Source: Prosthecobacter sp.
GTDB lineage: Bacteria; Verrucomicrobiota; Verrucomicrobiia; Verrucomicrobiales; Verrucomicrobiaceae
Direction: 5' to 3'
Length of the DNA: 64,000 nt
NCBI GenBank assembly: GCA_044355075.1
Contig: JBIKYV010000003.1
Span: 7,324-71,323 of the forward strand
Position numbers and translations under genes: made by a program
In this document: positions 2,504 to 15,659 of the stretch, piece by piece
Layout of the letters: each line of letters opens with the position of its first letter
How positions within the stretch are numbered: position 1 is the stretch's first letter
The notes under the pieces: model-generated
The model's database searches: none
Seen by the model: the letters and a program-made list of their open reading frames with translations, nothing else
Told to the model about the DNA's origin: nothing

Positions 2504-2532
2504 TTGACGCCTTGTGGTTTATATTTTACCAT
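2504..2532 (+). promoter_or_regulatory. Candidate sigma70 promoter of the NtrC-like gene
   Basis: TTGACG (2504-2509), 17 bp spacer, TACCAT (2527-2532), about 40 bp upstream of ATG 2573. Confidence 0.5.
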
Positions 2533-2572
2533 ATTTAATAGTCAAATTTGATACTCAAATTCACAAGATGTT

Positions 2573-3943
2573 ATGGCAAAGCTAGTAATCATAGATGATG
2601 AGGCTGCGATCCTTGAACTGATGAGCAAGCTCTGTCGTACGGCCGGGCACACGGTTTTCGGCTGTACATCGGGGAAGGATGGCATCAACACCCTTCACGC
2701 GCAGAAGCCCGATCTGGTGATTGTGGATCTGAGAATCGGTGATGTGAATGGACTCGACCTGGTTAGCCTGTGTCGAGAGCATTTTCCTCAAACTGCTGTT
2801 ATCATGGTGACTGGCCACGGTAGTGTCGAGACGGCGGTAGAGGCCATGCGCCTCGGTGCGTTCGATTACCTCACCAAGCCGTTTGATTTGGGAGATCTAA
2901 TCAAAACAGTGAATCATGCCTTGGCGCAGCAAGGCAAGGCTCAGACTAAGCCTGTGACGCCCACGGCTGTGTCTGCCCTGCGCAGCAGCTTCGCCTCAAA
3001 ATTGATTGGTCACAGCGATGCTATCCAGCGCATCTTTGAGATTGTGCGACGCGTCGCTGACAATGACAGCCCCGTGTTACTCGAAGGGGAATTCGGCGTG
3101 GGGAAACACATGGTGGCCAGGGCGCTGCATGAGGCTAGCCGCCGGAGCCACGCCCCCTTCAAAGAATTGCAGTGCAGTGCGCTACCGGAGGAGAATCTAG
3201 AAGGCGAGCTCTTTGGTCATGCTGGCAGTCCGCAGTCTGGCATCTTCAGCCGAGCAGGTGGCGGCACCGTGCATTTGGCCGAGATCCATGTGTTGCCGCC
3301 ACGCATCCAGGCACAGCTCAGCACTTTCCTCGAAGAGACCATGGCACGTCGCAGTGCCTGGAACCCGAACGCGGGTGATTTCAGGCTCGTGGTTAGCACG
3401 ACCATTTGCTTGGAGGAAGCCTCGAAAAAAGGCCTCTTTCGCGAGGACTTGTACTACAAGCTCTCCGTGGTCCCACTGAAAATTCCACCCCTGCGCGACC
3501 GTTGTGTAGACATCAAGCCGCTGGTGGAGCACTTCCTTAAAGACCTTGCGGAGAGGACCGATAGCAAGCCCAAGGGCATCGATAGCTATGCACAGGAGTT
3601 CTTGGAAAAGTATCCCTGGCCTGGCAATATTTCCGAACTCCGCAATGCCGTGGAGCGCGCTTGCGCCTTTGCTGAGGGTGACCGCATCCGTCCGAGCGAT
3701 CTGCCGACCAAGGTCACACAGCAGGTGGAGGTAGCATCCTCTCATGGAAATGGGGCCACAACGCAGTTGCCCATCGGCTCCACGTTGGACGATTTCATCC
3801 GTGGCCAAGAGCGTCTTTTCATCAACGAAACCTTGAAGTACAACAACGGCTCTCGGGAAAAGACAGCCTCAATGCTAGGCGTCAGCATCGCCACGCTGTA
3901 TCGTAAAATGGGACTGAGTCAGGAGCGCAAAACCATGGCCTGA
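2573..3943 (+). CDS. NtrC-like response regulator (receiver + degenerate AAA+ + Fis HTH)
   Basis: Receiver motifs IIDDE / VIVDL / TGH / TKPF. AAA+ remnants GEFGVGK, FREDLYY, WPGN. C-terminal HTH TASMLGVSIATLYRKM. GAFTGA is absent. Confidence 0.9.
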   Translation: MAKLVIIDDEAAILELMSKLCRTAGHTVFGCTSGKDGINTLHAQKPDLVIVDLRIGDVNGLDLVSLCREHFPQTAVIMVTGHGSVETAVEAMRLGAFDYLTKPFDLGDLIKTVNHALAQQGKAQTKPVTPTAVSALRSSFASKLIGHSDAIQRIFEIVRRVADNDSPVLLEGEFGVGKHMVARALHEASRRSHAPFKELQCSALPEENLEGELFGHAGSPQSGIFSRAGGGTVHLAEIHVLPPRIQAQLSTFLEETMARRSAWNPNAGDFRLVVSTTICLEEASKKGLFREDLYYKLSVVPLKIPPLRDRCVDIKPLVEHFLKDLAERTDSKPKGIDSYAQEFLEKYPWPGNISELRNAVERACAFAEGDRIRPSDLPTKVTQQVEVASSHGNGATTQLPIGSTLDDFIRGQERLFINETLKYNNGSREKTASMLGVSIATLYRKMGLSQERKTMA

Positions 3944-6896: not shown

Positions 6897-7558
6897 GACA
6901 AGCAAGCGCGCACGCAGCTCGATTCTTGTGCGCGATTCAACCCCGCGCAGTGACTTTCTCTGAACCCTTTGTGACTTCACTCTTATCCCCACGTGCCCTG
7001 AACTAGACTCATCATAAGGAAGTCTGTATAGACCAGCCCTTATCTTCCATATCATTTCCTGATTTGGTGAGTAAAAGCTGCATGGTCCGCCAATCTGGGC
7101 CGAATCTCAGGCTAGGCCTACACCGCCTACCCGGTGGCCACCCATCGAGCTACAAATCGCCAACGGTATACAAAGATGCTAATTCCAGGTACGAAATGCC
7201 CTTTGGAGGTTAATAAATCTAGCGTTGGCAACAACGCCCAAACGGGCAAGTCCGATCAATGCCTCCTTAATTCAAAGGTGTGAGTGTGGCGTAGCCATGA
7301 TGCAGGAATGAGTATGATTGATGCTCGTGTTTGTGATAAGATAGGTTAGGTATGATTTTTAGTGGCATTGATTTTCCTAAATAAGGAGTCATGGATCGTT
7401 GAGACGATGGATGCTGTAGCTGTGCAATCAGCAAAGTATCGGCAACACAGAGTTAGGCTAGCGCCAGGAAAATGCGGGTGAAGATTGTGTTCGTGGAGTG
7501 AGTGCTTGCGAACTGGGGGAAAAGCCGCAGACTCGCCCCCCTTCCAACCTTTCTGCCC

Positions 7559-8512
7559 ATGTCTGCCAAAAAAACTGCTGTCGTCACCGGAGCTGCCGGT
7601 TTCCTCGGATCACATCTGACCGACCGCCTGCTGACAGAAGGCTATCGGGTGATCGGCATGGACAATCTAGTGACAGGCAATGTGCGCAACATTGAGCACC
7701 TGGCGGGCAATGCAGACTTTGATTTCATCAATCATGACGTCACGAAGTTCATCTACTTGCCCGGCCGTGTGGATTTGATCTTCCACTTTGCCTCACCAGC
7801 CTCGCCCATCGACTACCTGCAAATCCCGATCCAGACGCTGAAGGTGAGCTCCCTGGGGACTCACAATGCATTAGGTTTGGCTAAGGAAAAGGGCGCAACC
7901 TTTCTGATCGCTTCGACCAGCGAATGTTATGGTGATCCGCTGGAGCATCCGCAAAAAGAGACCTACTGGGGAAATGTGAATCCCATCGGTCCCCGTGGCT
8001 GCTACGATGAGGCCAAGCGCTTCGCCGAAGCAATGACCATGGCCTATCATCGGGCGCACGGGCTGGATACGAAGATCGTGCGCATTTTCAACACCTATGG
8101 CCCACGCATGAGACTAGAAGATGGACGTGTGGTGCCTGCCTTCATCGGCCAGGCATTGCAGGGGAACCCGCTGACAGTCTTTGGTGATGGCTCGCAAACA
8201 CGCAGTTTTTGTTATGTCTCTGACCTGATCGATGGCATCTACCGCCTTTCGCAAAGCAACTACCACGAGCCTGTGAACATCGGCAATCCACGGGAAATGA
8301 CCGTGCTCCAGTTCGCACAGGAGATTCTGAAGCATACCGGCACAGATTTGCCGATCATCCATAAAGAGCTGCCCACAGATGATCCAAAGGTTCGTCAGCC
8401 CGATATTGGACTTGCCCGCAAGCTACTCGGCTGGGAGCCTAAAATCGCCTTTGAGGAGGGTATCAGCCGAACGGTCGCTTATTTTCGTGACTTTCTTGCA
8501 ATCAAATCTTGA
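7559..8512 (+). CDS. UDP-glucuronate decarboxylase (UDP-xylose synthase) family SDR
   Basis: [67 protein letters not shown]. Confidence 0.92.
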
Positions 8513-8609
8513 TGCCAGAGCTGGTTTGAGAATAAAAAGATAATTAATCACGTGCGCTCACGTGCCAACAACCCACCGTGCCGAAGCTGTGACTCCCCCC
8601 CGTCCCACC

Positions 8610-9224
8610 ATGAAGTCGTCTCTCTCTATCCTCGCCGTATTGTGCTGCGTTGCTTCTTACCTTCAGGCGCAGTCAGGTGGCCCTGCTGCCAGGGTGAAGA
8701 TCAGCTCGCCTAAGGTGTCTAGCATTCAAACCCCCATGTTTGAGGCGGCAAATACACCGAACCGCAATTGGCGCCCGAAAGAATGGCTCGAATTCGATAC
8801 TGAGCTCGCCGTGACTCTGCCAGCAGCTGAGGGTGGACGGAAAGGCAGCCTTTCTTCAATGACGATCAATTACTTTGTCGCAATGAACACGCAGACAAAG
8901 GATGGCAAGTATCCGATGCTGAAGGGCTCCATCAATTATCTGGATATTCCAGCGGGGGAGCGTTGCCATGCTCTCGCATATATCAATCCCGCAACACTGC
9001 GCCGAGTTCTGGGCAAAGATGGCTTCACCAACTCCGATGTGAAAGCTGCCGCGGTCGAGGTGGTTGTTGATGGCACTGTCGTGGCTGGAGAAACGACTAT
9101 CCCAGGACGTTGGTGGGAAAAGACCGATAGCTTTGAGGTGACAGAGAATGCCGTTCTTAGCCGCAAAGAAACGCCTTTCGACATTCTTTGGGGCGACTAC
9201 GACCTGCCCACGAAAGCTAAATAA
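8610..9224 (+). CDS. Amuc_1102 family pilus-associated secreted protein
   Basis: Signal peptide, QTPMF...NWRPKEWLEFD and ETPFDILWGDYD. First gene of a locus matching Akkermansia Amuc_1102-1098. Confidence 0.75.
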   Translation: MKSSLSILAVLCCVASYLQAQSGGPAARVKISSPKVSSIQTPMFEAANTPNRNWRPKEWLEFDTELAVTLPAAEGGRKGSLSSMTINYFVAMNTQTKDGKYPMLKGSINYLDIPAGERCHALAYINPATLRRVLGKDGFTNSDVKAAAVEVVVDGTVVAGETTIPGRWWEKTDSFEVTENAVLSRKETPFDILWGDYDLPTKAK

Positions 9225-9288
9225 GTCCTGGGTGCTATAGCAAGACCTCAGCGGCTCCACCGATAGCTTAGAATCAATCAATAACAGC

Positions 9289-11022
9289 ATGGCAGACAGC
9301 AAAAGCATTGCAGTCCTGAACCTGGGTTCCCAGCGGCTTTCAGGAGCTTTATTCTCCAAGTCCGGAGGCGACTTGGTGCTCAAGAAATACGAATTTGTGG
9401 AGATGGCTGGTGATCCGACCGTGGATGCCACTCGGATTCCACAGCTAAAAATAGGCATTCAAGAGCTGGCCACTCGCCTCAAGCTGAAGTCCTCTGCTGT
9501 CTGGTACGCAGTGGCGGGTCACACGGTGTTTAGTCGTTTTGTCAAACTGCCACCCGTGCAGGAAGATCGTGTTGCCCAAATCGTTGAATTTGAGGCGCGT
9601 CAGAATGTGCCATTCCCGATCAATGAAGTGGTCTGGGACTACGAATTTGCCTCTGAGGGCGGCATTGAAACGGAAGTCGTGCTAGTCGCCATGAAGTCCG
9701 ATGCTTTGGATGAGATCGACGATCAAGTCGCCCTAGCTAAACTCGCCACGAGTGGAGTAGATGTCGCGCCTCTCGCGCTCTACAACGCTTTTCGTTACAG
9801 CTACCCAGATGTTGATGAGCCTGCGGTGCTCATTGACCTAGGTGCTCGGTCCACGAACATGCTTTTTGTCGAAAACGGTCGTTTCTTCATCCGCAACTTC
9901 TTGGTGGGGGGAGCCTCCATTACCTCGGCAATTGCCAAGGAATTCAGCATCGGTTTTGCCGAGGCGGAAACCCAGAAAATCCATCGTGGTTTTGTTGCTC
10001 CTGGCGGCGCTGTGCAGGATCACGATGACCCTGAAATTGCAGCCTTGTCGAAGGTGATCCGTAATGCAGCCTCGAATCTGCATACGCAGGTCATGCGCAC
10101 GATCACTTTCTACCGCAGTCAACAGGGTGGATCTCAGCCCAAGCGCGTTTTCATCAGTGGTGGTGGTGCATTGCTTGGCAACATGGTTGCCTTCCTGGAA
10201 GAAAAGTTGAAGCTGCCTGTGGAGATCTTCAATCCTCTTCGCGGTGTGCAGGTTGATCGCGGCCTGAATGCGGATGCCGCCGCTGCAGACGCCCCTTTTC
10301 TCGGAGAGTTGGTCGGACTCGCTCTCCGCTCTTCCAGTGGTGTTCCATGTGAGGTAGAGCTTGTGCCCACCAAGGTGGCGAATGCGCGAGATGCAGCCCG
10401 CCGCATGCCGATTTTGATGGTGGGAATGCTGCTCTTCTGGGCAGCTCTTGGCACTGGCATCTTCTATTTCCAGAACACGGAAAGAGCCGTGCGTGACAAG
10501 CTCGCGGGCATGAGTGCCGAAAATGCACGTTTGAAGAACCTCGCCGGCCAGATTTCTGCTCTGGAACAACGTCAAGGCCAGTATGCCTCGTTGAGTGAGC
10601 AGCTCGAACAGGCGGTCGCTGAACGTTCGTTTTGGGTTCGGTTGCTGACGGATTTGAACGCTAAGTTTGAGAACGACATGATCTGGCTCACCTTAGTTGA
10701 ACCGCTCAAAAATGGCAATTCCATCACCCCAGCGCTGCTAGGTCAGGAGTCCTCGGGTGAAAAGAAAGAGGAGGCGGCTGCTGGTGGCGCGACGGCTTAT
10801 AGCGTTCGCCTCCAAGGCCTCTATCGCAAGAACGACGAGGGTGAACAAATCGTTTACAAATTTGCATCAGCCTTGGCGAAGTTGCCTTGGTTTGAGATCG
10901 CTGACTTCGAAGAGAAACGCGCCCAATACGTTAGCGCGCAAAGTGGTGTCGAGGAAGACCGCTATGCCTACACATTCAAAATTGAGCTGCCCCTCAAGCA
11001 GAGCATGAACTTCAAAGACTGA
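9289..11022 (+). CDS. Amuc_1101 family PilM-like actin-fold ATPase fused to a PilN-like domain
   Basis: IAVLNLGSQR, FEARQNVPFP, LIDLGARST, GGASIT and ISGGGA, followed by a TM helix, coiled coil and PilN-like IWLT/VRLQG segment. Confidence 0.88.
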   Translation: MADSKSIAVLNLGSQRLSGALFSKSGGDLVLKKYEFVEMAGDPTVDATRIPQLKIGIQELATRLKLKSSAVWYAVAGHTVFSRFVKLPPVQEDRVAQIVEFEARQNVPFPINEVVWDYEFASEGGIETEVVLVAMKSDALDEIDDQVALAKLATSGVDVAPLALYNAFRYSYPDVDEPAVLIDLGARSTNMLFVENGRFFIRNFLVGGASITSAIAKEFSIGFAEAETQKIHRGFVAPGGAVQDHDDPEIAALSKVIRNAASNLHTQVMRTITFYRSQQGGSQPKRVFISGGGALLGNMVAFLEEKLKLPVEIFNPLRGVQVDRGLNADAAAADAPFLGELVGLALRSSSGVPCEVELVPTKVANARDAARRMPILMVGMLLFWAALGTGIFYFQNTERAVRDKLAGMSAENARLKNLAGQISALEQRQGQYASLSEQLEQAVAERSFWVRLLTDLNAKFENDMIWLTLVEPLKNGNSITPALLGQESSGEKKEEAAAGGATAYSVRLQGLYRKNDEGEQIVYKFASALAKLPWFEIADFEEKRAQYVSAQSGVEEDRYAYTFKIELPLKQSMNFKD

Positions 11023-12020
11023 TGAGCTGGATACAAGACAACAAAGGGCCCGCAGCAGTTCTCGGACTGACTGGGGCAGGTGTGATCGGACTCGGCGTCA
11101 TGCTTTTCAATGCATGGTCGGGAGCTACGGCGGCGCAGGAAGAGTTTGATATGGTGAACATCAGTCTTTCCCGACTGAAATCGACCGCTCTTGCTCCTAC
11201 GGAAGATAATCTTGCCCAAAAACAACAACTCGTTCAGGCGTATGAATCTGCGGTCGGCAAACTCTCGCTGGTGCTCTACAAGCTTCAGCCCGAGGATAAG
11301 CCGACCACCAACACAGAATTTCAGGCCAAGCTGAAGAGTCGTATCGCAGAAATCAAAAAGCTGGGCGGCGGCAAGCTGCCTGCGGAGTTCAACCTCGCAT
11401 TCGACCAATATACCAGCGAGTTGCCTAAATCCGATCAGGTGGCGGCCGAGCTCTCGAGTTATTTGGATGCCGTTGAAGAGATTGTGAAACTCGTGCTCAA
11501 GAGTGGAGCGCAGTCACTCATCATGCTGGAGCGCTCGCCTTTGACGGCAGAAAAAAGTGAATCTGAAAAGCCGCGTTCCTCTTCCTCAAAAAGTAAAGCT
11601 AAAGGTGGCGTTGCTAAACCTTCTGCGGCTCAGACCGTCAGTATCACTGAGCGCAAGCAAGTGAGACTGGCTGTGCGTGCGGATCAGTCAGCAATTCAGA
11701 CACTGCTCAGTTCTCTCGCCAGCCCTTCGGAGATGCCATTTTTCACGGTGGCAAAGCTCGTCCGCATCGAAAACGAATCCCAGATAGGTCCAGCTCGCCT
11801 TGCACAGGGCAGTGCGCCATCCGATGCAACCGAGCCTGCAGTTAGTAATGAATCTTCAGCTCCTTCAGCCCCTAGTGGCGAGACTGACGCCAAGCCTGGA
11901 CTTGCTCCTGCTGCCCCTGATTCACAAGTGGTGCTCGGTCGCGAGTACCTGAGAGCATTCCTCGAAATTGATCTTGTGAAGTTCCTCAACCCACAAACCG
12001 CTGCTGCAGCTCAACGCTGA
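11022..12020 (+). CDS. Amuc_1100 family pilus-associated membrane protein (PilO-like position)
   Basis: MSWIQDNKGPAA plus TM helix, TTNTEFQAKL, LAFDQYTSELP, FFTV...VRIENE and VVLGREYL...IDLVKF parallel the Amuc_1100 sequence as I recall it. Start overlaps the upstream stop (TGATG). Confidence 0.82.
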   Translation: MSWIQDNKGPAAVLGLTGAGVIGLGVMLFNAWSGATAAQEEFDMVNISLSRLKSTALAPTEDNLAQKQQLVQAYESAVGKLSLVLYKLQPEDKPTTNTEFQAKLKSRIAEIKKLGGGKLPAEFNLAFDQYTSELPKSDQVAAELSSYLDAVEEIVKLVLKSGAQSLIMLERSPLTAEKSESEKPRSSSSKSKAKGGVAKPSAAQTVSITERKQVRLAVRADQSAIQTLLSSLASPSEMPFFTVAKLVRIENESQIGPARLAQGSAPSDATEPAVSNESSAPSAPSGETDAKPGLAPAAPDSQVVLGREYLRAFLEIDLVKFLNPQTAAAAQR

Positions 12021-12060
12021 GTGGTTCGCCTTCAGCTGACACGCACCCCAATCCATCTCC

Positions 12061-13029
12061 ATGCAGAAGAAAAACGGCAACTACGAGAAGAACCTGCTCA
12101 TTATCGCAGCGGTTCTTGCGGCCGGCATGATTGCCTTCACCATCATCGACGGTCCCAAATTGCAGGAAAGATTAGCCCTCCAACCAGGCGCTTCTCCCAA
12201 CAACCTGAATCCTCCACCCACTGAGCGAGTAAACTCTGTCTTGCAAAGGCTGATGGAGAAAGCCAGCTGGGTTTCTCCAGTTATCAATGGCAAGCCTGTG
12301 CCGCTGAATAAATCGATTCTGTTGCTTCAAAAAGGAGATCAGCTTTTTGACCTTCAGGTCACAGAGCCTGTGTTGCGTCCCCCGATGAGCAATGAGTTCT
12401 TGGTGAAGAACGACTTGCCCAACATTGAGTCGCCCAACGTAGGTGCTTTAGATCCAGACAATGATGGATTTAGCAACGAGGAGGAATTCGAAGCAAAGAC
12501 CAATCCCAAAGACGAGCGCGAGCACCCTCCAGTGACCCGTAAATTGTTCCTGAAGCAACGCATCAGTCACGATTACATCATCAAGCTCAATAGCAGCACG
12601 CCGCCTTATCAAGTGCAGCGTATCGCCCCCGAGCCACGGGCCAGCAAGTTCGTCTCACCGGGTGATGAATATGGCTTCGATAAAGGTGTGATTCGGTTCA
12701 AGGCATTGGTTTTTGCCCAAAAAGTCATGAAGAACCCAACCACTCAGCTCGAGACTGATGTTTCCGAGTTGAAGTGCTTGGATATCTCAACCCAAAAAGA
12801 GTTTGTGTTGGTTCGTGGACAAGAAACCAATCTTGCTGATTACGAAGCAGAATTCGAATTCAGAATTGGAACCCCCGAACAGAGAAAAGTTCGTGAAGGA
12901 GAAACCTTCCAACTGCCAGGCCTTGGTGTGACCTTTAAACTATTGTCTGTCAGTGAACAAGATGCTGTGATCGTACCAGTGAAGGGTGGGGTGCCAGATG
13001 GTGAAACCATCACGATCAAAAAAGGCTGA
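12061..13029 (+). CDS. Amuc_1099 family protein with a TSP3-like Ca-binding repeat
   Basis: N-terminal TM helix, DPDNDGFSNEEEFEAKTNP motif and position between the Amuc_1100-like gene and the secretin. Confidence 0.75.
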   Translation: MQKKNGNYEKNLLIIAAVLAAGMIAFTIIDGPKLQERLALQPGASPNNLNPPPTERVNSVLQRLMEKASWVSPVINGKPVPLNKSILLLQKGDQLFDLQVTEPVLRPPMSNEFLVKNDLPNIESPNVGALDPDNDGFSNEEEFEAKTNPKDEREHPPVTRKLFLKQRISHDYIIKLNSSTPPYQVQRIAPEPRASKFVSPGDEYGFDKGVIRFKALVFAQKVMKNPTTQLETDVSELKCLDISTQKEFVLVRGQETNLADYEAEFEFRIGTPEQRKVREGETFQLPGLGVTFKLLSVSEQDAVIVPVKGGVPDGETITIKKG

Positions 13030-13115
13030 CTAAAAAAAACAAAAAACATCTCGCCAAAACCTTCGGCTTCTTGCTAAACAATCCAACTTCTTGCCAATTT
13101 TTTCAGACTGTGTCC

Positions 13116-15659
13116 ATGATCACCATCTCCCGAATGAAAAGAAAAAAAACCTCTCTCGCTTGGATTATCGCCGCTGCGATGCCTGTGGCATATCAAACGA
13201 ATGCTCTTGCGGGCGAAGGTGCTAGTGATGCTTCCAGCGTTCCAGGTATTGCAGAACGTGAGATCTCGAGGCGGCTTGCACGTATTCAGGATGCGCAGAA
13301 AGCCATGCAACGTGGTGATGAACTCTTTGCTCAAGGCGATCTCGATGGTGCGCTTTCTCAGTATCGCTCAGCCAAGGAAATTTTCGACCAGTTGCCCAAC
13401 GCGCCTTTCATCCAAGACTGGCGAGATCTCGCTAATCTGAAGTTTGCAGACTGCTCTGTAGCGGTGGGTCGTCAGAAAGTTGCTGCTGGCGATTACGTGG
13501 CTGCCAGAAAACTCATAGACGAGGCTTTTGCTGCCGTGCCTGGTCACAAAAAAGCACAGCTTCTTGTGAGTCAGTTGGATGATCCTGATCGCTGGCCTCA
13601 AGCACTGACTCCTGAGCATGTTGAAAACGTGGGTAAAGTTCAGAAGGGTCTTGTGACTGCCAACAGCTCAGTTGAGATTGGTAACTATGACAAGGCGCTT
13701 GAGGAATATGAAGATGTGCTTCGCATAGACCCCTATAACACGGCGGCTCGCCGTGGAATGGAAAACGCAGAGCGTAAGCGCGCTGACTACCTCAAGACGG
13801 CTTATGATCACAATCGCATTCGCATGATCAACATGGTGACTGAAGCTTGGGAGCACAAGCCACCAGTCAAAGGATTCCAGGTTGAAGGAACATCGGGCGG
13901 CAGCAAAGCTCCCACAGTTTACTTGAGCCAGAAGATGCAAAAGATCGTCTTCCCTCAGGTTCAATTCTCAGGTGCTAGCATCGATGAAGCAGTCGAGTTC
14001 CTTCGTGTCAAAAGCCGCGACTTGGATACCTTTGAGACCGACCCAGCTCGTAAGGGTGTCAACATCATCCTCAAGGCAGGTGAAAATGCCCCGACAGCCT
14101 CCATCAGTCTTGATCTGAAGGATGTGCCAATGATGGAAGCTCTTCGCTATGTTACCGAACTAGCTGGCATGAAGTTCAAAGTGGAGCCCTTCGCAGTATT
14201 GATTGTGCCCGTCACAGAAACCACCACAGAGCAATTCACACGCATTTACAAAGTTCCACCTGACTTCGAAACCATGACCAGTGGTGGTGGTGATGCAGCG
14301 GCTCCTGCGGCAGCAGCTGATCCCTTCGCAGCAGGCGGCGCTGCCCCTGCCGCAGCTTCTGGTTTAATTAAGCGCCAAAACGCTAAAGAGATCCTAACGA
14401 GCCAAGGTATTGCCTTCCCCGAGGGCGCTACTGCGGTCTTCAACAAGGTGACTTCGCAGCTGATCGTCAAAAACACCCAGCCCAACTTGGATCTGGTCGA
14501 AGCGTTTGTGGACTCGATCATTGGCCGAATCACCAAGCAGGTTTACGTGACCACAAAATTTGTCGAAGTGACCCAGAAAAACACAGATGAACTGGGTTTT
14601 GACTGGTTGCTTGGCGGCCTTGGCGTCAATGCTGACAATCTTCAAGTCGGTGGTGGCACCAATGGTAACTGGGGTGGCCGCGTCAATTACACAGGTTCGA
14701 TCGCCGATCTTGTCACCAATGGACAGATTTCCCCTGTAACCCGTGGCCTCAGAAGTGGCTCTCGTGCGATCCGTGGTGATAGCATCGACTCTTTGTTCAA
14801 TTCGCTGGATGCAACATCTGATACCGTTTCTCCCGGAGTCCTTTCCCTCGCGGGTATTTTTACTGATCCTCAGTTCGGTGTTGTGATGCGTGCTTTGTCG
14901 CAGCGCAAAGGAGTTGACCTCATGAGTGCTCCAAGCGTCACCACCAAAGGCGGTCAGCCTGCCACGGTCGAAGTTGTTCGCGAATTCATCTATCCTACCG
15001 AATTTGATCCTCCACAGATCCCCACCAACGTCGGTGGTGGTGGTGGCGGCGGTGGTGGTGGTGGCGGCGGAACAACGATTGTTTCGATTCCAGTGACTCC
15101 AACAACACCAACAGCCTTCGAGATGCGTCCAGTCGGTGTGCGCATGGAAGTTGACCCTGTGATTGGTGAGAATGGTTCCATTGATTTGAATCTCGCCCCT
15201 GAAGTCACGGAGTTTGATGGTTACATCAACTATGGCAGTCCGATCTACAGCGTGTCTCCGAACGTGCCGATCCTCGACATTTTCGGCAACCTTCTTGGCA
15301 CGATTCCCTCAAGCCGTCTCGAACTGACCCCGAACATCATCAACCAGCCGATTTTCTCTACACGTAAAGTCAAGACATCGGTTACGGTTTGGGATGGTCA
15401 AACGGTGGCCTTGGGTGGTTTGATTCGTGAGGACGTGCAAGATGTTGAGGACAAAGTTCCTGTGCTTGGCGACCTTCCTTTTGTCGGTCGTGCCTTCCGC
15501 TCGGAAGTTGAAGATCACTTCAAGCGCAATCTTATGATCTTCGTGACAGCAAGCCTCATCGATCCAGCTGGACAGCGCATCAAGCTTCAGGGCTCAGGTG
15601 GCTCTAGCGAAGAGGGAGCCGATCAGGCCAATCCTCTTCTGCCAGCTGTTGGCAACTAA
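13116..15659 (+). CDS. Amuc_1098 family secretin (PilQ/GspD-like) with N-terminal TPR region
   Basis: Secretin core motifs DLMSAPSVTTKGGQPATVEVVREFIYP, VTVWDGQTVALGGLI and KVPVLGDLPFVGRAFR, N-domain FSGASIDEAVEFL, and TPR-like helices. Confidence 0.92.
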   Translation: MITISRMKRKKTSLAWIIAAAMPVAYQTNALAGEGASDASSVPGIAEREISRRLARIQDAQKAMQRGDELFAQGDLDGALSQYRSAKEIFDQLPNAPFIQDWRDLANLKFADCSVAVGRQKVAAGDYVAARKLIDEAFAAVPGHKKAQLLVSQLDDPDRWPQALTPEHVENVGKVQKGLVTANSSVEIGNYDKALEEYEDVLRIDPYNTAARRGMENAERKRADYLKTAYDHNRIRMINMVTEAWEHKPPVKGFQVEGTSGGSKAPTVYLSQKMQKIVFPQVQFSGASIDEAVEFLRVKSRDLDTFETDPARKGVNIILKAGENAPTASISLDLKDVPMMEALRYVTELAGMKFKVEPFAVLIVPVTETTTEQFTRIYKVPPDFETMTSGGGDAAAPAAAADPFAAGGAAPAAASGLIKRQNAKEILTSQGIAFPEGATAVFNKVTSQLIVKNTQPNLDLVEAFVDSIIGRITKQVYVTTKFVEVTQKNTDELGFDWLLGGLGVNADNLQVGGGTNGNWGGRVNYTGSIADLVTNGQISPVTRGLRSGSRAIRGDSIDSLFNSLDATSDTVSPGVLSLAGIFTDPQFGVVMRALSQRKGVDLMSAPSVTTKGGQPATVEVVREFIYPTEFDPPQIPTNVGGGGGGGGGGGGGTTIVSIPVTPTTPTAFEMRPVGVRMEVDPVIGENGSIDLNLAPEVTEFDGYINYGSPIYSVSPNVPILDIFGNLLGTIPSSRLELTPNIINQPIFSTRKVKTSVTVWDGQTVALGGLIREDVQDVEDKVPVLGDLPFVGRAFRSEVEDHFKRNLMIFVTASLIDPAGQRIKLQGSGGSSEEGADQANPLLPAVGN
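15033..15071 (+). repeat. In-frame poly-Gly trinucleotide repeat, [(GGT)4(GGC)2]x2 GGA
   Basis: 13 consecutive Gly codons inside the secretin core. Confidence 0.9.

Follow-up and report, generated by a model that had tools for sequence, protein, structure and literature searches.

The window analysed here is a 64,000-nucleotide stretch of the genome of a Prosthecobacter sp. of the family Verrucomicrobiaceae (GenBank assembly GCA_044355075.1, contig JBIKYV010000003.1, positions 7,324 to 71,323 of the forward strand), and close to its start lies a gene for a response regulator of 456 residues. The protein has the domain order of a canonical bacterial enhancer-binding protein (bEBP), i.e., a receiver (REC), an AAA+ domain with its lid and a helix-turn-helix (HTH), and its AAA+ domain has lost the GAFTGA loop and almost all residues of the catalytic set. 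This dead AAA+ domain is among the more constrained parts of a near-core gene. Atypical enhancer-binding proteins (EBPs) are a known, polyphyletic kind, with TyrR, PhhR, HupR, HsfA, NtrX, VpsR and the NtrC proteins of Rhodobacter and Caulobacter among them, and judged by its sequence the regulator described here is a new, independent verrucomicrobial origin of that kind. It is probably a phospho-controlled, sigma-54-independent DNA-binding regulator whose AAA+ domain would serve as a non-catalytic scaffold for nucleotide binding or oligomerisation; the narrower claim, that it neither activates sigma-54 nor has meaningful ATPase activity, we make with high confidence.

Degenerate motifs in a conserved AAA+ domain

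Pfam recognises REC, AAA+ (Sigma54_activat) and HTH_8 domains in the protein, the architecture of a canonical bEBP. An earlier, sequence-only reading of this DNA had described the receiver and the HTH as intact, and both are: the full phospho-acceptor set of a two-component receiver (DD, D, T, K) is present as D8, D9, D52, T80 and K102, and HTH_8 is matched at residues 413-446. The closest solved relatives are NtrC1 of Aquifex (1ny5/4l4u, E ~1e-72) and NtrX of Brucella (E 9e-63). When the regulator was aligned residue by residue with NtrC1, the 'ekgaftg' of the latter fell in a 7-residue gap, at a stub that reads ELFGHAGSPQSG, LDEI became LAEI (residues 235-238), ATN became STT (275-277), YYRL became YYKL (294-297) and GNVREL became GNISEL (351-356), all five of which had been called from the letters alone. 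The L2 segment 'RVGG', likewise reported as lost, is replaced and lengthened. The GAFTGA loop is required for engaging sigma-54.

How unusual these states are was judged against 122 canonical representatives, drawn from a search of 1.84 billion proteins. Among these, the Walker B Asp, the Arg finger and the sensor II Arg are each conserved at 100% and the sensor I Asn at 84%, and the regulator replaces every one of them (D236A, R296K, R354S and N277T, respectively). Since these catalytic positions are conserved at 84-100% in canonical proteins, the degenerate combination is not the chance drift of one sequence. Walker A, which the sequence-only reading had taken to be intact, is so only in its GxxGxGK skeleton: the consensus GESGTGKE, kept at 85-94% in canonical bEBPs, has undergone the substitutions S174F, T176V and E179H, and a His occupies the position of the Mg ligand. 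The Asn of the glutamate switch is a Gln (N200Q), and the KLLRVL helix reads QLSTFL here and QLN[T/S]FL across most of the clade to which the regulator belongs (K248Q and R251T, with the canonical Leu250 a Ser here and an Asn in most clade members). Several residues have become newly conserved and are specific to the clade (K197, E198, R227, H234, R244 and R328), and newly conserved basic residues (R227, R244, R328, K334, K346 and K380) are found in the core and the lid. The clade-specific residues suggest that the domain was retooled and did not drift.

By its sequence the protein thus fits the definition of an atypical EBP, a AAA+ domain of the sigma-54-interaction type without a functional GAFTGA, and it departs from the canonical bEBPs in GAFTGA itself and in the catalytic set (Walker B DE, sensor I Asn, Arg finger and sensor II Arg). 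The NCBIfam equivalog models for bEBPs all score it far under their cut-offs, the highest value being the 316 bits of AtoC, where 714 are required, and NtrC giving 313 where its cut-off is 559. The AlphaFold2 model has a mean predicted local distance difference test (pLDDT) score of 78.5 and exceeds 90 in the receiver; in it the fold of the AAA+ core and lid is intact, the HTH is present, there is no L1 hairpin, and the linker of residues 121-143 has a pLDDT of ~30 and is also the least conserved segment. When the model was compared with the PDB by Foldseek, NtrX (in its ADP, ATP and apo forms) came out on top, followed by NtrC1, NtrC4, LuxO, VpsR and FleQ. The geometry between domains is unreliable (predicted template modelling score 0.45; Foldseek template modelling scores of ~0.3 for full-length matches), and no conclusion on oligomeric state is drawn from it.

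The sequence-only reading had left two checks to be made, namely whether the orthologues are canonical and whether this copy evolves under relaxed selection. The orthologues are not canonical: all 120 close homologues (71-93% identity, with the named ones from Prosthecobacter or Verrucomicrobiales) carry the degenerate states, as do clade members down to 40% identity. GAFTGA is absent from all 120, and in the alignment of 121 sequences that they form with the query no Asp occurs at the Walker B position, which is taken by A, T or S; Ser stands at sensor II and Thr at sensor I throughout (121/121 each), and the Arg finger is Lys in 118. The receiver residues D52, T80 and K102 are identical in all 121, and D8 and D9 in the 119 sequences that span them. 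Also invariant among the close orthologues are the P-loop residues G172, G175, G177 and K178, the Walker B E237, and R290, and the sole part of the AAA+ domain to vary in length is the L1 stub.

Nor is selection relaxed. Against L045, the closest orthologue with usable synonymous divergence (a synonymous substitution rate, dS, of 0.83), the ratio of nonsynonymous to synonymous rates (dN/dS) was 0.033 for the AAA+ core, 0.016 for the lid, 0.054 for the receiver, 0.013 for the HTH and 0.28 for the linker. Over the orthologues used for these estimates, the ratio was 0.011-0.056 for the whole gene and 0.015-0.033 for the core, with the linker at 0.21-0.83 where it could be computed. More distant pairs are saturated at synonymous sites; in these the proportion of nonsynonymous differences (pN) in the core, 0.11-0.29, is about that of the receiver and well under the 0.39-0.68 of the linker. 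At long range the HTH is the best-conserved part, with 80-85% identity where the whole protein has 58-62%. The gene is single-copy, with an intact frame and no internal stops, in 110 of 121 genomes of the family, spread over 15 genera, and this distribution together with a dN/dS of 0.01-0.06 marks it as an atypical EBP gene maintained by selection. In the culturable species P. dejongeii the orthologue is P0024.

Origin and known counterparts

Among 300 genomes sampled across the phylum, the degenerate type was found only in the window's own family. The next-best matches are fully canonical, with 43-45% identity in the same class and ~40% in other classes, and score 310-380 bits against a general bEBP background of ~250 bits. 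A deep search brought in further degenerate members at 40-54% identity, including one from Sulfuriroseicoccus oceanibius and proteins of metagenome-assembled genomes (MAGs) labelled Verrucomicrobiaceae or Verrucomicrobiales. These distant members have all lost GAFTGA, the sensor I Asn and the sensor II Arg, and every full-length one keeps a GExGxGK skeleton (mostly GEFGxGK). In a maximum-likelihood tree of 111 proteins, all of the degenerate proteins form one clade (support of 90 in the SH-like approximate likelihood-ratio test, SH-aLRT), which falls in an unresolved cluster with canonical verrucomicrobial groups, and NtrX lies elsewhere in the tree. A common origin with NtrX was considered and is ruled out by this tree position and by the NCBIfam NtrX model (NF051870), which gives 287 bits against a cut-off of 600; the adjacency to ntrY that goes with NtrX is missing as well.

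Within the family, a single genome (G384) has a match that by its score, 312 bits at 42% identity, falls in the range of the canonical sister proteins. As the canonical-range match is confined to this one family genome, the degenerate form has replaced the canonical form and has not supplemented it. The genome in question belongs to the window's genus; the 42% match (C199:15113-16429) is the best that it contains, and the degenerate orthologue is absent from it. The protein may have been retained from the ancestor, acquired by transfer or brought in by contamination of the MAG. In the window's own genome, rpoN and a pair of fully canonical bEBPs are present, and sigma-54 activation is thus covered by other proteins.

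The canonical verrucomicrobial sister bEBPs (40-45% identity; L017-L044) have the same architecture and the same length as the regulator, are its closest relatives in the tree, and often have no adjacent kinase either, several of them adjoining a T2SS-F/PilC gene. They keep GAFTGA, LDE, ATN, YYRL and GNVREL, are presumably true sigma-54 activators, and, the G384 match excepted, are absent from the window's family.

Of the atypical EBPs that have been characterized, NtrX (Brucella abortus and Sinorhizobium meliloti; 5m7n/5m7o/5m7p) is the best structural match to the regulator model. It is similar in its REC-AAA+-HTH order, its lack of GAFTGA and its loss of the sensor I Asn (SST), and has been crystallised with ATP and with ADP; it differs in retaining the Walker B DE, the Arg finger and the sensor II Arg, all three of which the regulator has lost, and in being alphaproteobacterial and adjoining ntrY, whereas the regulator is a verrucomicrobial orphan. 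NtrX needs phosphorylated D53 for DNA binding, recognises CAA-N2-5-TTG sites, and represses where a site overlaps the transcription start (PMC9223101). VpsR (Vibrio cholerae, 7v2b), another structural neighbour, has neither GAFTGA nor the Walker B DE, is devoid of ATPase activity and works as an activator of the sigma-70 RNA polymerase (RNAP) (PMC6158489), and it needs cyclic di-GMP (c-di-GMP) with phosphorylation not being required (bioRxiv 10.1101/2023.06.06.543975). Compared with VpsR, the regulator has a fully canonical receiver, an independent origin and extra losses (sensor I, Arg finger and sensor II), and on its motifs it appears more thoroughly de-catalysed than either NtrX or VpsR.

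The NtrC proteins of Rhodobacter and Caulobacter resemble the regulator in the deletion of the L1 loop, act at sigma-70 promoters and need aspartyl phosphorylation, but are paired with NtrB and serve nitrogen assimilation, whereas the regulator has neither an adjacent kinase nor a nitrogen-gene context. ATP binding is needed by Rhodobacter capsulatus NtrC and hydrolysis is not, and the GAFTGA-less Caulobacter NtrC regulates sigma-70 promoters and is rendered null by the change of its Walker B Asp to Ala (bioRxiv 10.1101/2023.06.06.543975). Caulobacter NtrC keeps a Walker B Asp that it needs in vivo, where the regulator has lost this and other catalytic residues. TyrR, PhhR, HupR and HsfA have a variant GAFTGA and work with the sigma-70 RNAP (PMC6158489); their sensory N-termini or their lineages differ from those of the regulator. 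They were compared with it by description and, for TyrR, by a model score of 202 bits against a cut-off of 576.

Such proteins are already well known, and a specialist will not be very surprised by another. No paper in the literature that was searched mentions both GAFTGA and Verrucomicrobia, and the clade extends the atypical EBPs past the proteobacterial examples of PMC6158489 to the Planctomycetota-Verrucomicrobiota-Chlamydiota (PVC) group. Clade members that are named in the NCBI and JGI records are called 'sigma-54-dependent transcriptional regulator' or 'NtrC family response regulator'; the sigma-54-dependent label is very probably wrong as a statement of function, would mislead the reconstruction of sigma-54 regulons in Verrucomicrobiota, and is worth correcting. 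The clade is also a natural case of a AAA+ motor turned pseudo-enzyme, with the canonical lineage replaced within one family and the degenerate version, nearly stripped of catalytic residues, placed under a constraint that is stronger still, and it is a good system in which to ask why a dead AAA+ ring is retained.

Proposed function and its rivals

That ATPase activity is lost, that the protein is independent of sigma-54, that the domain serves as a scaffold and which type of promoter is targeted, we infer from the motifs described above and from analogy with characterized proteins. The ancestor would have been a canonical verrucomicrobial enhancer-binding protein, and the GAFTGA loop would have been lost in the ancestor of this verrucomicrobial lineage. 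The hydrolysis set (Walker B Asp, glutamate-switch Asn, sensor I Asn, Arg finger and sensor II Arg) would have gone too, and the AAA+ domain, after retooling, would have persisted without catalysis, most likely as a scaffold for binding a nucleotide or for oligomerisation. D52 would be phosphorylated by a kinase encoded elsewhere, and the scaffold would pass this signal on to the Fis-type HTH at the C-terminus, which would bind sigma-70 promoters, where the regulator might act as activator or repressor. That it is independent of sigma-54, as the sequence-only reading had proposed, follows from the deletion of the GAFTGA loop and from the published precedent of VpsR, NtrX and the Rhodobacter and Caulobacter NtrC proteins. 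The invariant P-loop skeleton suggests that a phosphate-bearing ligand is still bound.

The regulator's own promoter may be one of its targets. Upstream of the gene lies a sigma-70-type promoter (TTGAC-N17-TAGCAT), whose TTGAC is invariant in 8 orthologous upstream regions; these are conserved despite the saturation of synonymous sites in the gene itself, and just downstream of the -10 (2541-2552) is a palindrome of the GTCAA-N2-TTGAC type. This conserved palindrome in the leader looks like an operator and is a candidate for autoregulation, which recalls the autoregulation of NtrX and its CAA-N2-5-TTG sites. The sigma-70 type of the regulator's own promoter says nothing about the promoters that it targets.

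Several points weigh against the function proposed here. The gene is missing from 11 of the 121 family genomes, and is thus not essential. No histidine kinase gene adjoins it in the window, as the sequence-only reading had already pointed out, or at 7 distinct orthologous loci, so synteny offers no partner kinase; its neighbours in the window are the genes for SufE and TsaD and for a sulfatase, an epimerase, an M23 peptidase and a PL14 lyase. With His at the position of the Mg ligand (Q, R or G in distant members) even the binding of ATP is uncertain, and the altered pocket may bind another ligand or nothing. With the Walker A Lys, the Walker B Glu and the first Arg retained, some slow turnover of nucleotide may conversely persist. 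The class of promoter that the regulator would act upon is taken from precedent only, and a scan of the genome for GTCAAATTTGAC with at most one mismatch gave 10 matches against ~9 expected, i.e., no enrichment.

The rival that survives best, and that overlaps with the explanation we prefer, is that the protein responds mainly to c-di-GMP, guanosine tetra- or pentaphosphate ((p)ppGpp) or some other nucleotide, bound in the retooled pocket or on the surface of the AAA+ domain after the manner of VpsR and FleQ, leaving the receiver as a secondary or vestigial input. An invariant P-loop skeleton with an altered Mg-ligand residue would suit such a receptor, as would the new basic residues conserved in the core and lid and the finding of VpsR and FleQ among the structural neighbours; FleQ is reported to bind c-di-GMP via its Walker A motif, according to a title cited in PMC6158489. 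The invariance of the phospho-acceptor residues argues instead for a working phosphorelay input, and of the residues that contact c-di-GMP (LFRS in FleQ, an R/N after Walker A and ExxxR in the lid) the ExxxR spacing is missing from the lid segment AERTDSKPK (residues 326-334), and we consider it unlikely that a second messenger is the main input.

Considerably less probable is that the protein is a poison or adaptor subunit, an inactive AAA+ that co-assembles with the cell's two canonical bEBPs and modulates their hexamers. Its AAA+ fold and R290 are conserved and canonical bEBPs are indeed present in the same genome, but it shares only ~220 bits of similarity with these paralogues, and its own highly conserved HTH and receiver are those of a self-contained regulator. 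Nor are we aware that any of the atypical EBPs cited here enters into rings of mixed bEBPs.

There is, we think, scarcely any chance that the regulator still activates sigma-54, hydrolysing ATP with substitute residues and contacting sigma-54 via another surface. The genome does encode rpoN, the protein retains R290 along with the Lys of Walker A and the Glu of Walker B, and the database annotation says sigma-54-dependent; against this, the GAFTGA loop is deleted and not merely mutated, replacements have occurred at the Asp of Walker B, at the Arg finger and at both sensors (the Asn of sensor I and the Arg of sensor II), and the NCBIfam equivalog scores for bEBPs are far below their cut-offs. 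In Caulobacter NtrC the Walker B D235A allele is null (bioRxiv 10.1101/2023.06.06.543975), and VpsR, with milder changes, is without detectable ATPase (PMC6158489).

The idea of a decaying paralogue, i.e., a redundant bEBP copy drifting towards a pseudogene with neutral motif losses, would account for the joint loss of many catalytic residues, the variable length of the L1 stub and the genomes without the gene, but is already refuted, and nearly to the point of negligible probability, by the low dN/dS of the whole gene and of the AAA+ core, the fixation of identical replacement residues across 120 homologues, the intact, stop-free frame in all 110 carrier genomes, the rise of new conserved residues and the conservation of promoter and leader.

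Gene neighbourhood, promoter scans and a second degenerate regulator

The features of the gene and its upstream region are collected in Table 1. Gene order around the regulator is not conserved in the orthologous contexts examined, save for a loose linkage to a type IV pilus-like block. When the window's own Amuc_1102-like protein was used as the query, the regulator was found 4.4-10.4 kb from the Amuc_1102-type gene of the block in 19 genomes, belonging to 10 of the 15 genera, in two arrangements. In one, the regulator is convergent with rnd-rho-coaE-secretin-PilM-Amuc_1102 (L050:1755-13987); in that of the window, it lies upstream, on the epimerase side, of the epimerase and the Amuc_1102-1098 block (7502-15659). 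Of 9 canonical sister genes examined, 5 are directly downstream of a T2SS-F/PilC gene, a position that is seen in other verrucomicrobial classes. Housekeeping genes separate the regulator from the block where the common arrangement is found, and in most genomes of the window's genus the two are unlinked, so the linkage may be inherited synteny.

A direct regulatory link from the regulator to the pilus-like block is conceivable, though doubtful. Less likely still is a larger scheme, in which this family would have moved a sigma-54 circuit of the PilR type over to sigma-70, and in which the pseudo-ATPase pocket, with its invariant P-loop skeleton, its altered Mg-ligand residue and its newly conserved Arg, Lys and His residues, would sense a nucleotide or second messenger and, together with phosphorylation by a distant kinase, would control the Amuc_1102-1098 pilus-like machine without ATP hydrolysis. 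The evidence for this rewired circuit comes entirely from gene neighbourhood. If the hint from the neighbourhood holds, the protein would be a regulator of an Akkermansia-type pilus-like locus.

Table 1. Features of the regulator gene and of its upstream region (positions in the window; aa, amino-acid residues)
Feature	Position	Strand	Evidence
Orphan response regulator, REC-AAA+-lid-HTH, whole gene, 456 aa	2573..3943	+	Open reading frame; Pfam domains; single-copy orthologue in 110/121 family genomes
Receiver domain, aa 1-120, phospho-acceptor D52 with D8, D9, T80, K102	2573..2932	+	Pfam Response_reg at 5-113
REC-AAA+ linker, aa 121-143, predicted disordered, weakly conserved	2933..3001	+	aa identity 0.19-0.41; pLDDT ~30
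AAA+ alpha/beta core, aa 144-305, degenerate catalysis, purifying selection	3002..3487	+	Sigma54_activat at 144-302, 129.7 bits
Walker A GEFGVGKH, aa 172-179	3086..3109	+	Homologue alignment; consensus GESGTGKE
L1 stub ELFGHAGSPQSG, aa 212-223, GAFTGA deleted	3206..3241	+	7-residue gap against NtrC1; length varies in orthologues
Walker B VHLAEI, aa 233-238, Asp to Ala, Glu retained	3269..3286	+	Alignments
Sensor I STTI, aa 275-278, Asn to Thr	3395..3406	+	Alignments
FREDLYYKL, aa 289-297, first Arg (R290) invariant, second Arg finger to Lys	3437..3463	+	Alignments
AAA+ lid, aa 306-390, with sensor II GNISEL (aa 351-356, nucleotides 3623-3640), Arg to Ser	3488..3742	+	Pfam AAA_lid_14 at 308-388
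Fis-type HTH DNA-binding domain, aa 411-456	3803..3940	+	Pfam HTH_8 at 413-446
Sigma-70-type promoter of the regulator gene, TTGACG-N17-TACCAT	2504..2532	+	Alignment of 8 orthologous upstream regions
Leader with palindrome GTCAAATTTGAT at 2541-2552, candidate autoregulatory operator	2533..2563	+	Upstream alignment

The leader palindrome was also considered as a signal of a wider regulon and was dropped, its frequency in the genome and in the window being at chance level: in the 64 kb of the window TCAA-N1-5-TTGA has 5 matches, about the number expected by chance, and none of these is in the promoter region of the pilus-like block. For sigma-54 promoters, TGGCAC-N5-TTGC with up to 2 mismatches matched the window 91 times against 91.5 expected, with no match upstream of the regulator. 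A weak sigma-54-like TGGCAT-N5-TTCC (2 mismatches) is found at 7363-7377, between genes and upstream of both the epimerase and the pilus-like block, and such matches occur in the window at chance frequency.

The window's genome encodes a second degenerate bEBP-like response regulator, of 448 residues and unrelated to the first (L004:1072-2418; G000 contig C183:10097-11440). It reads GPRGSGKT at Walker A, LIEEV at Walker B, ATSS at sensor I and FYQL where the Arg finger has become Gln; it has no L1 loop at all and retains the sensor II GNVREL. Unlike the main regulator, it has a HisKA/HATPase_c kinase gene (L004:20-1030) directly upstream, and it is single-copy in 24 of 31 family genomes and 12 of 15 genera. 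The sigma-54 contact loop is thus missing from two of the four bEBP-like regulators of this genome.

Upstream of the regulator gene, 12 bp past the stop of the sulfatase gene, a perfect AT-rich inverted repeat, TTGTAATTT-GTA-AAATTACAA, occupies 2349-2369 and is followed by TAAAAAAA; the repeat may be bound by a protein or may act as a weak terminator in both directions.

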